Shown here piece after piece: positions 1,932-27,778 of a stretch of 64,000 bases of DNA. The stretch spans positions 754,633 to 818,632 of the forward strand of contig OZ241855.1 in the NCBI GenBank assembly GCA_965202785.1. The letters are read 5' to 3'. Origin of the DNA: Thermodesulfobacteriota bacterium. GTDB lineage: Bacteria > Desulfobacterota_D > UBA1144 > Nemesobacterales > Nemesobacteraceae. The first letter of the stretch is position 1. Each line of letters begins with the position of its first letter. The translations under genes were made by a program, and so were the position numbers. The notes under the pieces are model-generated. The model made no database searches and had not been told where the DNA came from. It was given only the letters and a program-made list of their open reading frames with translations.

Positions 1932-1981
1932 AATGTTTCACGTGAAACATTGGGGAATTACCAAGTTAAGCCGGTAATTCC
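1932..1981 (+). repeat. Second copy of the 20-bp palindrome AATGTTTCACGTGAAACATT, followed by a 9-bp-stem hairpin (ggaattacc...ggtaattcc) that may terminate mnmE
   Basis: The palindrome is identical to the core of the terminator at 437-468. The hairpin at 1954-1981 is followed by CTTTGT. Confidence 0.5.
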
Positions 1982-2007
1982 CTTTGTATACACAGAGGAG
2001 ATGAATA

Positions 2008-2565
2008 ATGAAGAAATTTAGTCTTGTTTTCATGGTTTTTGTTTTAGCGATATTTCTTGCTTGCGATGATAACGATAGTGACACTATGGAGATGGAGTCG
2101 GAACCGACATCAGTGCCGATGAAAGGGTTTTTCGCCAGCATTGATGAAAACAACATGAACGACTGTCAAAGTGAAGACCTGACTCTGATGGTGGAAGATG
2201 AGTTGGTCATTGGCAGTAGCAACGTTACGGCACTAGGTGCGGGCGAAGCATTTGATGAAGCGGTATTCGGATATATAGGTATAAAGACGGAAAGCCATAT
2301 AGCTGCTTCTTATGTAACGTCAACAAGGGAAGGCAGTCTTGTCAATCCCGGCGTTCTTTACCTAAGGAAGAAAGGGGATATATACGTTGGATTCTGGGGT
2401 GGCGAAGCTACACGCCCAGAAGGCAATCCATCCGTTGTTTGTCCTTACATAATGGTTCCGGCAGGTATGGCGGAAGAAGATGGTTGTGAAGCGGAAGCGT
2501 ATTCTGAATATCTCAAGAACGAAGATGGTTTATTAAAGACTTGTACCGCAGCACCAAACAATTAA
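2008..2565 (+). CDS. Hypothetical lipoprotein in an AT-rich segment
   Basis: N-terminal signal peptide with lipobox (LAIFLACDD), acidic mature part. Local GC is clearly below its surroundings, and a 470-bp AT-rich non-coding stretch follows. Confidence 0.5.
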   Translation: MKKFSLVFMVFVLAIFLACDDNDSDTMEMESEPTSVPMKGFFASIDENNMNDCQSEDLTLMVEDELVIGSSNVTALGAGEAFDEAVFGYIGIKTESHIAASYVTSTREGSLVNPGVLYLRKKGDIYVGFWGGEATRPEGNPSVVCPYIMVPAGMAEEDGCEAEAYSEYLKNEDGLLKTCTAAPNN

Positions 2566-3038
2566 TGCACAAAAAGATTTCGTCAACTTAATTTGGTAAG
2601 TCCCAAACATTTCACAGGGCACTCGGCGAAATGAGTTAGAGGAATCGGACTGTTTGGAAGATTATTCAGTTATTTAAGGTAGTTAGAATACAGTCTGCGG
2701 AGTTCTGAGAATCCATTCACAATCTATCGACAAGAAAAAGTGTTTCATATCAGTGAATTAAGAAACTCCAAACGAATTTTTAATAATTTGTTAACAGCTC
2801 AAAAATTCTCTGAGAATTTTTCGTGCGGACACGCTTCTTTGCCCGCCTCGGGGATAACGTTTTTTCTCTTCGCCCGGTTAAAATTCCTGCCCGTTTGCGA
2901 CAACGGTTCCGCGGTCGGCCGGATTTGGTCAAGGATGTTTGAGAGGTATTTTTAATTTCTTAAATAATCTTTTGTTTTCAGCGGGTTAACTGTTGACCAG
3001 TTTTTTATACCGTGTAACCTAACTCGCCGGGTGAATTT

Positions 3039-9081: not shown

Positions 9082-9177
9082 AGCAATCTACTTTGGAACT
9101 CATGAAATTGTCAGATTATGGATGCTGTTACAAATTGTCTGGCAGAAAAAATTTTGGGACTTATATACGATGCTATA

Positions 9178-10122: not shown

Positions 10123-10296
10123 TTTCCGTTATTAAGCTGTGAAAAACCGTCCAGAAAACTCTATTTTACCCTGTCTTTTCAGAAAATATTGACTGCGGTG
10201 GCGGATGAAGACACCGGATTTTTGCGCAAGCCGCATGTAACAAGGTATAAATTTATCCTGATTAGCGGGCGTTTCGCGTCGTGTATTTTTCGGGAT

Positions 10297-11546
10297 TTAT
10301 GTATTTAAGTTGACGGATTAGATTCAAGCTGTAAACCGGGTATAATGCAGTGATGATAAGAACTTACAAGTGCAGGGTGAAGCTGTCCAAGGCTGGTCAT
10401 GAACGGTTGACCGAGATATTCGCGATGTCTGCGGAGCTGTACAACGCAGGCTTGGAATCCCGCATTGACTGCTACAAAAAGACAGGAGAAAGCCGCAGTC
10501 TTTATGACCAGTACAAGGAACTTGTGCAGGTAAGAGCGGAGTTGCCGGAGTTTGAATCTATATCCAATATTGTGTTTCGTGGCGTACTCTCAAGGCTTGA
10601 CAAGGCGTACAAATCGTTTTTTCGGAGGGTGAAGGCAAAGGAGAAAGCCGGATTCCCCCGTTTCAAGAGCCGGAAACGCTGGCGAACCATAGAGATAAAT
10701 GACAGGGCATGGAGTATGCTCAAGCGTGAGGGGAACAAACTGATTCTAAAGGTCAAAGGGTTTCCTCGGATCGAGGTAAGGCCGTCGAGGGAGCTTCCCC
10801 CGAATGCCCTGCTCAAGGCGATTCGGATTACCAGAAAGCCTCTGCGGACGGAAGTGGCGTTATCGTACGAATTGGCGACTCCCGAGGCAAAACCATTTAC
10901 CAGCCCCGTTGGAATAGATATGGGCATATCGAAGCGCCTGACCTTGAGCGATGGGGGAACCGTGGAGAAGCGGGAGATAGACAGAAAGAAACTGATACGC
11001 CTTCAACGCTCCGCATCCCGCAAGGTGAAGGGAAGCAAAAACAGGCGTAAAGCGGTGCGTCTGCTCGCAAAGGAATGGCAGAGGGTATCGGACGGGGAGA
11101 GAGATTATCTTCACCGCCTGACCAGAGAGATAGTCAAGATGTACGACTTCATTGCGGTAGAGAAACTGAAGACAGAAAACATGCTTCGCGACGGGAATTT
11201 AGCAAAGAGTATTTCCGAGCAGACTTGGGGCAGTACCATTACGCTGCTTAACGAGAAGGCCGAGAGTGCTGGCGTTAAGATGGTGGCAGTGAACCCCGAG
11301 GGAACTTCGCAGGAATGTTCTGCCTGCGGAGCAACAGTAAAGAAAGACTTGAGCGTGCGTGTCCATAAATGCGACTGTGGTTATGTCGCCGACAGGGACA
11401 TAAACGCTGCAATTAATATCCTTCATCGAGGTATCTCGATTGCGGGCGGGAATGTTACCCGCATGGTCGGAAGGATTAAAGAGAAGTCAGAAGTTGTTCT
11501 GACTCGGCCAAGAACAGTGTACGAAAGTGTCAACTTAAATACATAA
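10297..11546 (+). mobile_element. TnpB-only insertion element bounded by perfect 18-bp terminal inverted repeats
   Basis: TTATGTATTTAAGTTGAC at 10297-10314 and its exact reverse complement at 11529-11546. The right repeat ends precisely at the tnpB stop codon. Confidence 0.7.
10350..11546 (+). CDS. tnpB: IS200/IS605-family OrfB/TnpB RNA-guided endonuclease homolog
   Basis: RuvC-I GIDMG, zinc finger CSACG...CDCG, RuvC-III DRDINAAINIL, 398 aa. Confidence 0.9.
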   Translation: MMIRTYKCRVKLSKAGHERLTEIFAMSAELYNAGLESRIDCYKKTGESRSLYDQYKELVQVRAELPEFESISNIVFRGVLSRLDKAYKSFFRRVKAKEKAGFPRFKSRKRWRTIEINDRAWSMLKREGNKLILKVKGFPRIEVRPSRELPPNALLKAIRITRKPLRTEVALSYELATPEAKPFTSPVGIDMGISKRLTLSDGGTVEKREIDRKKLIRLQRSASRKVKGSKNRRKAVRLLAKEWQRVSDGERDYLHRLTREIVKMYDFIAVEKLKTENMLRDGNLAKSISEQTWGSTITLLNEKAESAGVKMVAVNPEGTSQECSACGATVKKDLSVRVHKCDCGYVADRDINAAINILHRGISIAGGNVTRMVGRIKEKSEVVLTRPRTVYESVNLNT

Positions 11547-11556
11547 TTCCCTTTAG

Positions 11557-12849
11557 ATGAACCAAAGAACCGCAGCTGTCCTGTCAGCCGTTTTCCTGCT
11601 CTTTTTCTACCTTTCCTGTGAAAGACCCCCGGAGATTCCGAGCCCCGAGTCCATGCGGGAGGTTCCCGCGTTCCCCGAGATGGACGACGACCTTTTCCCT
11701 GAGGGACTGAAGGAATCCATCGGCGCAAGCGTCGAGAAACTTTCGCAGAAAAAGGATTCCCAGCTTGTTTTCGGACAGAAAACCGTCTCCGCAGGGGACT
11801 ACGCGCTCGCACTCGGTTATCTTCTCGCCAAGCTTGAAGCGGGCGTTACCAAGGATGATTTCATAAAGGACGTAAGGGAAAATTTCGATTTCTACGGCTT
11901 TCCGGGAAAACCCTGGGGCAAGGTTTTTATAACATCTTACTTTTCTCCGGTGCTTTCCGCTTCCCGAACCAGGACACCGCAGCATACCCAGCCGCTATAC
12001 GGGGTTCCCGCCGACCTGGTGCGCCTGAGGATAGACAGGTTCGTCGAGCGATTCGAGAGATTTTCGTTTCTTGAGGACGACAAGATCGCCCGGGGAAAGC
12101 TTCAGTCCCTTTACGGCAGAGTCGCCTCCGGAGGCCCTGGCAGGACGTCGGAGCTGGTTCCCTATTATTCTCGAAGCGAGATAGACTCCGGGGGAAGGCT
12201 CAGGGGGAAAAGGCTTGAGATCGCGTGGGTAGACCCTGTTGATGCGTTTTTTCTTCAGGTTCAGGGCTCGGGTAAAATAAGGTTTGCGGACGGAGAAGAG
12301 CGGGTCGTGGGCTACGCCGCCCAGAACGGACACGATTACGTGGCGATAGGGAAATTTCTCTTCGAGTGGATTCCGAAGGAAAAAATGAGCCTTTGGGCCA
12401 TAGAAAGCCACCTGAGATCCCTCTCCTACGCGGAGAGGATGAAGATTCTTTACAAAAACCCTAGTTACATTTTCTTCCGCGGACTTGCGGGCAAGCCGGA
12501 AACTTCTTTCGGAACGGAAGTCGTCGACGGCAGGACTGTAGCGACCGACAAGGCTTTTTTCCCCAGGGGGGCGCTGGCGTTCATGGAGTTTGAGAGACCG
12601 GTTTTCGAAACTCCCTCTTCAGTTGAGCCGTCGCAGTGGGAACCGGTTTCCCGCTTTGTCGTTAACCACGACAGCGGCGGAGCCATAAAAGGGGCCCGGC
12701 GCGTCGACCTTTTCTGGGGGGAGGGAAAAGACGCCTCCCGGCACGCGGGTGTGATGAAAAACTGGGGAAAGTTCTTCTATCTGGTGCCGAAGGGGGAATT
12801 CCTGACGGTGCTTAGGGCAAAAAACGGCGGCCAGGGCCAAGGAGGATGA
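11557..12849 (+). CDS. mltA: Membrane-bound lytic murein transglycosylase A (lipoprotein)
   Basis: Lipoprotein signal (FFYLSC), and an MltA-like core (AWVDPVDAFFLQVQGSGKIRFADGE...GHDYVAIGK). Confidence 0.75.
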   Translation: MNQRTAAVLSAVFLLFFYLSCERPPEIPSPESMREVPAFPEMDDDLFPEGLKESIGASVEKLSQKKDSQLVFGQKTVSAGDYALALGYLLAKLEAGVTKDDFIKDVRENFDFYGFPGKPWGKVFITSYFSPVLSASRTRTPQHTQPLYGVPADLVRLRIDRFVERFERFSFLEDDKIARGKLQSLYGRVASGGPGRTSELVPYYSRSEIDSGGRLRGKRLEIAWVDPVDAFFLQVQGSGKIRFADGEERVVGYAAQNGHDYVAIGKFLFEWIPKEKMSLWAIESHLRSLSYAERMKILYKNPSYIFFRGLAGKPETSFGTEVVDGRTVATDKAFFPRGALAFMEFERPVFETPSSVEPSQWEPVSRFVVNHDSGGAIKGARRVDLFWGEGKDASRHAGVMKNWGKFFYLVPKGEFLTVLRAKNGGQGQGG

Positions 12850-26202: not shown

Positions 26203-26436
26203 GTGTTCTGATCCTTGCAAAAAGTCCGGCGTTACGGCTCGCTGCATTGCACCCTTCGGAGTGTTCCACGTCCCGGGCAAACGTGCCGTGCTCCAGACAG
26301 ACACTTTCGATAGGGAAATTATATACAATAGTCAAGAAAAAACCTGACTTCCCTGCCGAAATCCTTCGTCCTATACTCTTTTGCGGTGCGAAAGCTGTAA
26401 CGGTGCGCAACAGGCGAAATCGGTTAGCCTTGTGGT

Positions 26437-27231: not shown

Positions 27232-27370
27232 GTAAGGATTCTACAAATTCACCTGTTTTTTACAAACCCGGACAAGGGCTTACGCCGCGGGTCTTTACTG
27301 GAATTGAAAACTGTTTTCAGTTGTATATAATTTCCCTTCACGTTAAGCGATCGTTTAAGGAGAGAGTGTC

Positions 27371-27778
27371 ATGAGCGAAGATATTTTCAGACAGGATTTG
27401 TTTTCAACCGACGATGAGGGCAGAGTGAGACTGATTGCGGGTTACTGCAAGGAATCCGACAACTGGACCTTTCCAAGGTATCTTGCGGATCCAGTGAGTT
27501 TTACAGACGATGTGGAAGAGAAGTTTCTAAGCCCCACAGGCATTCTGCATTCCTTCACGGTTGTGAGAAGAAGCATGCCGGAATTTAAGGTGCCCTACGT
27601 TCTCGCTCTTGTTGATTTTCCGGAGGGGGTAAGGGTCATGGCGCAGGTTGAAACGGAAGATCCCGATTCTCTTGAGTTCGGCGAGGAGATGGCCGTGACG
27701 ATCGGTGTGATAAAAACGGCGCCCGACGGAACGGATGTAAGCTCCTACAAGTTTATTCCCGTAAGAGAGTGCTCCTGA
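27371..27778 (+). CDS. DUF35-like OB-fold protein (acyl-CoA-associated Zn-ribbon/OB-fold family)
   Basis: It is 135 aa with the DUF35-type architecture. The zinc-ribbon cysteines are largely missing. Confidence 0.4.
   Translation: MSEDIFRQDLFSTDDEGRVRLIAGYCKESDNWTFPRYLADPVSFTDDVEEKFLSPTGILHSFTVVRRSMPEFKVPYVLALVDFPEGVRVMAQVETEDPDSLEFGEEMAVTIGVIKTAPDGTDVSSYKFIPVRECS

Follow-up and report, generated by a model that had tools for sequence, protein, structure and literature searches.

How does a tnpB gene travel when it is enclosed by inverted repeats and accompanied by no transposase gene? This question is raised by a 1,260-bp segment (10292-11551) of a 64,000-nucleotide stretch of contig OZ241855.1, the whole of which is referred to here as the window. 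The segment is framed by inverted repeats, carries tnpB, and lies between a ROK kinase gene upstream, on the minus strand, and the host gene mltA. The original prediction had proposed either an element with terminal inverted repeats (TIRs) mobilised in trans, or repeats acting as a long-range RNA duplex. The first of these ideas is now supported by TIRs present throughout a family of copies and by 8-bp target-site duplications (TSDs) confirmed at empty sites, although the transposase was not found. The best explanation of the segment as a whole, to which we give a probability of about 0.8, is a non-autonomous TIR/TSD transposon (a mobile insertion cassette) whose cargo is tnpB with an omega-RNA scaffold, and which would be moved by a DDE-type transposase acting in trans. 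As to its parts, the anatomy (a TIR/TSD element carrying tnpB and the scaffold) is strongly indicated, and mobilisation in trans by a DDE-type enzyme is, taken alone, probable. The segment and its left border comprise the following features:

10283, plus strand: G directly 5' of the target 8-mer (position -1), from the reconstructed target sites
10284-10291, no strand assigned: left copy of the 8-bp target duplication, TATTTTTC (TATTTTCC in the empty site), from comparison with the empty site L061
10292-10314, plus strand: left TIR, GGGATTTATGTATTTAAGTTGAC, where similarity among independent copies starts
10341-10346, plus strand: TATAAT, 6 nt ahead of the ATG at 10353, invariant in all aligned copies
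10353-11546, plus strand: tnpB, 397 aa from the ATG (the open reading frame, ORF, also opens at GTG 10350), from family models, alignment and the ratio of nonsynonymous to synonymous substitutions (dN/dS)
11529-11551, minus strand: right TIR, GTCAACTTAAATACATAATTCCC, which holds the last tnpB codons and stop as well as the 3' arm of RNA helix P6

Ends, copies and target sites of the family

Perfect 18-bp repeats had been described around tnpB, and these are indeed present: the 18-mer TTATGTATTTAAGTTGAC lies at 10297-10314 and its perfect reverse complement at 11529-11546, these being the only two matches in 64 kb even with three mismatches allowed (two matches were obtained in 0 of 100 shuffles). 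The repeat is longer outward, reaching 23 nt with one mismatch (96% complementary, 10292-10314 / 11529-11551); the 18-mers thus sit at the ends of the element, but its true boundaries, as given by other copies, are 5 bp further out (GGGAW...WTCCC). TTCCC belongs to the element, which ends at 11551, and the mltA ATG follows 5 bp beyond this point instead of the 10 bp first reported. Within these limits tnpB occupies 1,194 of the 1,260 bp, and its stop codon falls, as had been noticed, inside the right repeat.

About 50 relatives, 70-93% identical, were found in Candidatus Dadabacteria genomes and share TIRs of ~24 bp (23-25 bp), GGGAATTATGTATTTAAGTTGAC. A scan of species-representative genomes recovered 37 close loci, with 3-7 diverged copies per single chromosome of 1.6-2.4 Mb. 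When flanks are aligned, similarity between independent copies starts at (A/T)GGGAATTATGTATTTAAGTTGACA and stops at ...TGTCAACTTAAATACATAATTCCC, limits that coincide exactly with GGGAW.../...WTCCC. Sub-lineages carry TIR variants (...ATCCTTTTTAG..., ...ATAGYSAYAACTAGACAG and ...ATATACATWACTACACA), the left and right ends showing the same variant in every sub-lineage. The nearest outgroup TnpBs (36-41% identity, from Nitrospirota, Omnitrophota and Anaerolineae) adjoin a classic Y1 tnpA (YHxVWxxKYRR), as does a more distant Bacillaceae TnpB (26%), and the outgroup TnpBs checked have no flanking inverted repeat of at least 10 bp, so that the TIR architecture is derived within the Dadabacteria clade.

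A perfect 8-bp direct repeat lies outside the TIRs in 28 of 30 curated independent insertions, the other two matching at 7/8 and 6/8 positions (examples are TAAACTAT, TATGTTTA, TTGATTTG, ATATCGCT and TTAAGTTT). Six occupied/empty comparisons (L003/L065, L077/L005, L005/L077, L020/L068, L062/window 26322-26350 and window/L061) each show an empty allele with a single copy of the 8-mer, and in the cleanest pairs, L003/L065 and L077/L005, the left- and right-flank alignments overlap by exactly 8 nt in the empty allele. The flanking repeat is a true target-site duplication. Reconstructed targets, read on the tnpB-forward strand, have G at position -1 in 30/30 cases, A or T in 87 of the 90 cells at positions +1 to +3 (C twice at +1, G once at +3) and T at +6 in 21/30, with no preference for C at the mirror position +9 among the 30 targets. 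The consensus is therefore a G followed by an AT-rich 8-mer, G|WWWNNTWW. At these 30 loci, the target 8-mers (TATAATTA, TATATTTA, TTATATAA, TAAAAATA and others) also resemble -10 promoter hexamers, and the element may favour promoter or leader DNA as a landing site.

How does the copy in the window fit this pattern? In L061, whose MltA is 97% identical, the site is empty and has a single copy of the target 8-mer (...GCGTCGTG TATTTTCC TTTAGAGAACCAACAGCTTTAGATGAACC...), which answers the call for an empty site made with the original prediction. The window reads ...GCGTCGTG TATTTTTC, then the element, GGGATTTATG...CATAATTCCC, then TTTAGATGAACC...; relative to L061, the left 8-mer is kept with one substitution, and the right copy plus the next 17 nt are gone (25 nt in total). 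The window copy thus appears to have entered G|TATTTTCC recently, a deletion at its right end coming afterwards. That the insertion is recent follows from the emptiness of the site in a strain with 97% identical MltA, and from L062 and L063, where copies that are 91-92% identical to that of the window occupy different loci and have perfect TSDs. The mltA leader is also empty in L060 (MltA 87% identical).

Other members of the family have had longer histories. L023 and L026 share the same insertion site in two species (elements 88% identical, flanks 84-87%), and some insertions are on this sequence comparison old and vertically inherited, with intact ORFs, while the copy in L037 is a pseudogene. 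In L034 (3909-6196) a family tnpB is split after residue 308 by ~2.3 kb encoding a 453-aa ORF that resembles, by eye, a group II intron reverse transcriptase/maturase (YADD motif). In L046 (3001-3263) a copy truncated at its 5' end has no left TIR; what is left of it, the final ~255 nt, comprises the zinc-finger codons, the complete RNA scaffold and the right TIR. The likeness of the L035 left flank to that of the window was considered as a sign of orthology and rejected, as no flanking gene or DNA is held in common.

The nuclease and a structured RNA at the right end

The ORF at 10350-11546 counts 398 aa from its GTG, the ATG at 10353 (397 aa) being the more likely start by comparison with relatives. 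Its reading as a TnpB is confirmed by matches to Pfam OrfB_IS605 (PF01385) and Cas12f1-like_TNB (PF07282), by NCBIfam guided_TnpB (NF040570, 237.7 bits against a cutoff of 100) and by alignment with the ISDra2 TnpB structures (8h1j / 8bf8, E = 7e-36); scores on the more specific models NF038281 IS200_TnpB (195.6 bits, cutoff 425) and NF038280 IS607_TnpB (97.8 bits, cutoff 350) fall below threshold. The RuvC residues D190, E271 and D350 align with the catalytic residues of ISDra2, leaving a triad free of inactivating substitutions, and the CxxC...CxC zinc finger (CSAC...CDC) is kept. Homologues number in the thousands, with more than 100 at 73-93% identity, the single named one being from Candidatus Dadabacteria. 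Values of dN/dS between the tnpB genes of relatives range from 0.13 to 0.24, a codon-level signal showing that tnpB is under purifying selection. The TATAAT at 10341-10346 is likely to be the -10 element of a tnpB promoter producing a leaderless mRNA; a strict sigma-70 scan returned no promoter for either tnpB or mltA.

The 3' end of tnpB had been predicted to contain an omega-RNA scaffold. This was examined on the final 240 nt in 25 relatives, the structure being predicted with RNAalifold and the pairs counted on a MAFFT alignment that had not been fitted to it:

11425-11551, plus strand: omega-RNA-like scaffold, six helices in the last ~125 nt (RNAalifold, 25 relatives)
11425-31 / 11434-40: helix P1
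11441-46 / 11458-63: helix P2
11464-69 / 11505-10: helix P3
11485-89 / 11500-04: helix P4
11490-92 / 11497-99: helix P5
11517-20 / 11541-44: helix P6
11552-11571, plus strand: predicted guide, TTTAGATGAACCAAAGAACC, covering the mltA start codon, proposed from TnpB architecture

The cells are paired in 98.7% of cases, compared with 35-43% after a shift of the 3' partners by 1-3 columns, and 13 of the 31 pairs show compensatory changes on both sides; the observed values were reached by 0 of 500 shuffles. The fold of the single sequence gives z = -1.9. Six covarying helices abutting the right end thus support the predicted scaffold; the hairpin singled out at 11486-11503 is real (11485-11504, P4 plus P5) but is only one of six, and the comparison with covariance models that had been proposed gave no matching family, a search of Rfam with E values of up to 10 returning only noise. 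An omega-RNA is defined anatomically by just such an arrangement, in which a structured RNA covers the 3' end of tnpB and extends no further than the edge of the element; its expression here is predicted. The 3' arm of P6 corresponds to positions 8-11 of the right TIR, and the bases that vary at TIR positions 10-11 (GT, CC, AG, AT) do so jointly in both TIRs and in the internal 5' arm of P6. This three-way covariation shows two constraints at work on the TIR, one as DNA end and one as RNA.

A guide in the flank covering the start of mltA had also been proposed. The predicted guide does cover the start codon, but it would begin at 11552 (TTTAGATGAACC...) and not with TTCCC, which is part of the element; position 11552 is at the same time the junction of the presumed 25-nt deletion. 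Under the proposed scheme, the TATAAT of the element would drive transcription of tnpB, the omega-RNA would derive from the 3' portion of this transcript, and the 16-20 nt beyond TTCCC would serve as guide. The G at -1 would then lie where the last base of the target-adjacent motif (TAM) is expected, and TnpB would cut unoccupied alleles having this G beside the matching sequence, whereas occupied sites, with the terminal C of the TIR at that position, would be distinguished and spared. At mltA, a recent insertion into G|TATTTTCC would have been followed by the 25-nt deletion, removing the right duplicate and leaving the element 5 bp from the ATG. The guide and TAM logic is put forward tentatively, and we hold it to be somewhat less probable than its contrary.

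Modes of mobilisation

TIRs and TSDs are both lacking in IS200/IS605 and IS607 (PMC13565253), and since the Dadabacteria family has them, it does not move by either of these mechanisms. TIRs with 8-bp TSDs make a staggered-cut, DDE-type transposase acting in trans the most likely agent. The family is therefore filed as a TnpB/OMEGA module on a non-autonomous TIR/TSD element (mobile insertion cassette), outside IS200/IS605 and IS607. With the IS1341 group of IS200/IS605 (ISDra2) it shares a homologous TnpB, the same triad and zinc finger, and a structured RNA running from the 3' end of the gene to the element boundary, but it differs by its TIRs, its 8-bp TSDs and the lack of a subterminal hairpin at the left end; IS607, in contrast with the window element and its TIRs and TSDs, uses a serine-recombinase TnpA. 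With mobile insertion cassettes and elements like miniature inverted-repeat transposable elements it has in common TIRs, a TSD, a passenger gene, the lack of a transposase gene and several diverged copies per genome, except that here the passenger encodes an RNA-guided nuclease, and the scaffold of its guide RNA is fused to one TIR, with which it co-evolves.

Two TIR elements that lack tnpB also have G at -1. One of them is a 652-bp element within the window (1953-2604), whose left end is GGGAATTACCAAGTTAAGCC, the first 30 nt forming a hairpin, and whose right end (reverse-complemented) is GGGACTTACCAAATTAAGTTGACG; it shares with the tnpB TIR the motif GGGAxTTA, a 5-nt gap and TTAAGTTGACG, and is flanked by AAACATTG / AAACATTT (7/8 TSD, G at -1). 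It carries an ORF (2008-2565) for a predicted lipoprotein of 185 aa, which matches no Pfam family and has only 5 homologues, and L085 has the element at the same site. The homologous TIRs, the 7/8 TSD, the G at -1 and a cargo other than TnpB argue for a shared trans-acting machinery. The other spans 541 bp in L029 (5834-6374) between inverted GGAAATTATATRC...GTTCACC repeats (20/24 identical), with flanks GATAGAGG / GATAGGGG and G at -1; its ORF resembles by eye a Bcp-type peroxiredoxin, and the segment is a possible further member of this TIR superfamily of cassettes. The occurrence of the G in elements without tnpB suggests that the preference belongs to the transposition machinery, in which case the TAM would be predicted to match it, as in IS605.

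Where, then, is the transposase? The claim that no tnpA is present holds for the 23 ORFs of the window that were compared with Pfam (of 51 non-overlapping ORFs reaching 110 aa or more, 20 were covered, together with 3 others). Several points weigh against a DDE-type transposase in trans and against the cassette as a whole. The 23 ORFs include no transposase of any kind; a metagenome scan with a 22-base TIR pattern gave 14 matches, 14/14 adjoining tnpB and none a transposase; and in an all-vs-all clustering of ORFs from ~60 Dadabacteria loci, metagenome contigs and the window, TnpB alone recurs across loci. A one-sided G at -1 is unusual and not expected of a symmetric DDE transpososome, no TSD flanks the copy in the window (which the presumed adjacent deletion would explain), and the omega-RNA, guide and TAM are predictions from sequence. 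The transposase negative is a weak one, given that the sampled loci are short windows around single genes and make up a small, unmeasured share of the genomes. A generic screen for inverted repeats with TSDs across the clustered loci found no other element with an 8-bp TSD, no Y1 HUH TnpA adjoins any of the ~50 copies, and tblastn against plasmids gave nothing above 40% identity. Degenerate IS110-type (Transposase_20) and DDE_Tnp_1/_1_6 gene fragments in one Dadabacteria strain (L080 1452-3012) were considered as a partner and rejected, their ends being unlike the tnpB TIRs.

Could the segment instead be an ordinary IS200/IS605 element of the tnpB-only IS1341 type, which a Y1 TnpA from another locus mobilises as single-stranded DNA, its repeats being incidental? 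The protein does belong to the TnpB family, with its best scores on IS200/IS605-type models, and its nearest outgroups are linked to Y1 tnpA. Against this stand the below-cutoff score on NF038281 and, above all, TIRs and TSDs that are family-wide and confirmed at empty sites, where IS200/IS605 elements have neither (PMC13565253), and we regard such an origin as very improbable. The same evidence on the ends bears on the idea that the repeats, instead of being transposon ends, act as RNA by joining the 5' end of the tnpB transcript to its 3' end in a duplex. The right repeat does lie within a structured RNA (helix P6), but the repeats mark the exact limits of similarity between copies and target duplications start just outside them, the conserved TATAAT downstream of the left repeat probably leaves that repeat untranscribed, and differences between left and right at position 5 (C or T against A) do not preserve pairing. 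The long-range duplex of the original prediction is thus unsupported, and we give it very little credence.

Two further readings assign a larger role to TnpB itself. The element could be autonomous, with TnpB (an RNase-H-fold RuvC nuclease), alone or with the omega-RNA, performing or directing transposition, and the G at -1 acting as a TAM during insertion. In its favour, the G occurs strictly on one side of the target, that of the omega-RNA, co-evolution links the omega-RNA with the TIRs, and no partner transposase was found; however, the partner search is low in power, the two tnpB-less TIR elements with G at -1 point to a separate machinery, and no TnpB is known to catalyse strand transfer. 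That tnpB-only TIR elements need no dedicated transposase, or that TnpB and omega-RNA help to choose or cut the insertion site, is accordingly improbable; if true, this would be the first prokaryotic TnpB coupled directly to TIR/TSD transposition, and not only to homing after excision. A domesticated, immobile TnpB that uses its guide to regulate mltA, as TldR-type repressors would, could account for a predicted guide that covers the mltA start codon and finds some encouragement in copies vertically inherited with intact ORFs (L023/L026). The catalytic residues of the window TnpB are intact, though, while known TnpB-derived regulators are nuclease-dead, a strain whose MltA is 97% identical does not have the insertion, and the overlap of the guide with mltA appears to have come from a secondary deletion, so that this too is highly unlikely.

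The non-autonomous cassette is not without precedent. Altae-Tran 2023 described six TnpB branches (DDE-1 to DDE-6) linked to DDE transposases, all with inverted terminal repeats, as well as solo TnpBs that have the same kind of ends and whose movement is presumed to occur in trans (PMC10691335). TnpBs in inverted-repeat, DDE-associated transposons have thus already been reported, and the Dadabacteria family is of the same rare kind; it may be one of the branches DDE-1 to DDE-6. It shares their inverted terminal repeats and a TnpB 3' end within 250 bp of the transposon end (here the stop lies inside the right TIR), but no transposase-linked copy was seen among the 14 metagenome TIR matches and the ~50 genomic copies. 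The partner families of DDE-associated TnpBs are given in a 2026 review as IS630, ISL2 and IS1031 (PMC13565253). The 8-bp duplication and the asymmetric target set the Dadabacteria family apart from the DDE-associated TnpBs. IS630, ISL2 and IS1031 make duplications of 2-4 bp. Another candidate partner is the IS1595 family / Merlin superfamily, which has 8-bp TSDs and GG-initiated TIRs (PMC8101967). Both traits are shared by the Dadabacteria elements; no DDE_Tnp_IS1595 gene was seen in any sequence examined (short loci and the window). The ends of the ISNwi1 group are presumably 'ggnnatTAT' with 8-bp direct repeats, which GGGAATTAT would fit, and this is a lead to a possible partner. In eukaryotes, Fanzor is likewise a TnpB homologue on TIR/TSD (DDE-type) transposons, its TSD region adjoining the TAM (PMC13565253), but the window element is prokaryotic, with a compact 397-aa TnpB and no sign of close kinship.

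It is only in IS200/IS605 and IS607 that the biology of TnpB has been worked out, and there scarless excision explains the value of the nuclease to the transposon, and TnpBs on inverted-repeat, duplication-making transposons have been noted so far only in one computational survey and a review; a literature search found no paper pairing TnpB with Dadabacteria. The family offers a well-bounded natural example, with defined ends, duplications confirmed at empty sites, a recent insertion and a scaffold that shares bases with the transposon end. Of what use is TnpB to a transposon without scarless excision? Do target choice by the transposase and the TAM co-evolve? A compact TnpB of 397 aa with a possibly minimal TAM may also interest genome-editing work.

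The mltA leader and neighbouring sequences

The insertion had been thought to part mltA from its upstream region, and this holds: the intergenic region is conserved in L060 and L061, together with a promoter-like motif that now stands to the left of the element, 1.3 kb from mltA.

10222-10251, plus strand: promoter-like TTGCGC-N18-TATAAA, conserved in the empty sites L060 and L061, a putative promoter (below the threshold of the strict sigma-70 scan)
11557-12849, plus strand: mltA (murein transglycosylase A), the downstream host gene, with Pfam MltA and 3D domains and orthologues 86-97% identical

Exact-sequence look-ups of the window MltA and of P0241 and P0244 returned no record. In L057 (1406-4000), L058 and L059 (MltA 92-93% identical), a three-gene cassette lies between the ROK gene and mltA at the insertion position, its genes encoding 229 aa, 174 aa and 372 aa (the last with a weak Lactamase_B match). 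The ROK-mltA intergenic region is an insertion hot spot. A terminator-like hairpin with a T-run (GGCGTTTCGCGTC GTGTATTTTT) occupies 10268-10291 in the mltA leader, directly before the insertion point.

The motif TGTATATAATTTCCC / GGTAATTCCC occurs upstream of host genes in the window, at 26312-26330 (minus strand), 27318-27337 (plus strand) and 1973-1982 (plus strand). It resembles a -10 box plus discriminator, and the outer 10-12 nt of the TIRs (CATAATTCCC) are similar to it, facing outward at both ends. The right TIR contains a -10-like CATAAT (11542-11547), 9 nt ahead of the mltA ATG, and such TIR motifs may, from their sequence, permit outward transcription. Matches to GGRAATTATATAC at 26314, 27335 and 9156 were considered as extra TIRs and rejected: those at 26314 and 27335 have no TSD, the one at 27335 reads toward a gene starting at 27371 (with the look of a host -10), the one at 26314 faces an ORF whose end is at 26328, and no gene occupies the strand faced by the solitary site at 9156.

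Elsewhere in the window, a perfect palindrome, AATGTTTCACGTGAAACATT, stands on both sides of the ORF 526-1920 (at 443-463 and 1931-1951) and is also found in L085, where the orthologue of this ORF has 464 aa and TrmE/MnmE Pfam domains. The right copy is the target of the 1953-2604 element, and the palindrome may be a motif of the repetitive extragenic palindromic (REP) type or a terminator. Finally, L058 contains at 544-1496 a segment of 953 bp with perfect 25-bp inverted repeats (CGTGGTTTCAAGTTTGAAACGCAAC), a 3-bp direct repeat and a 177-aa ORF without Pfam match, which may be an unrelated small mobile element.

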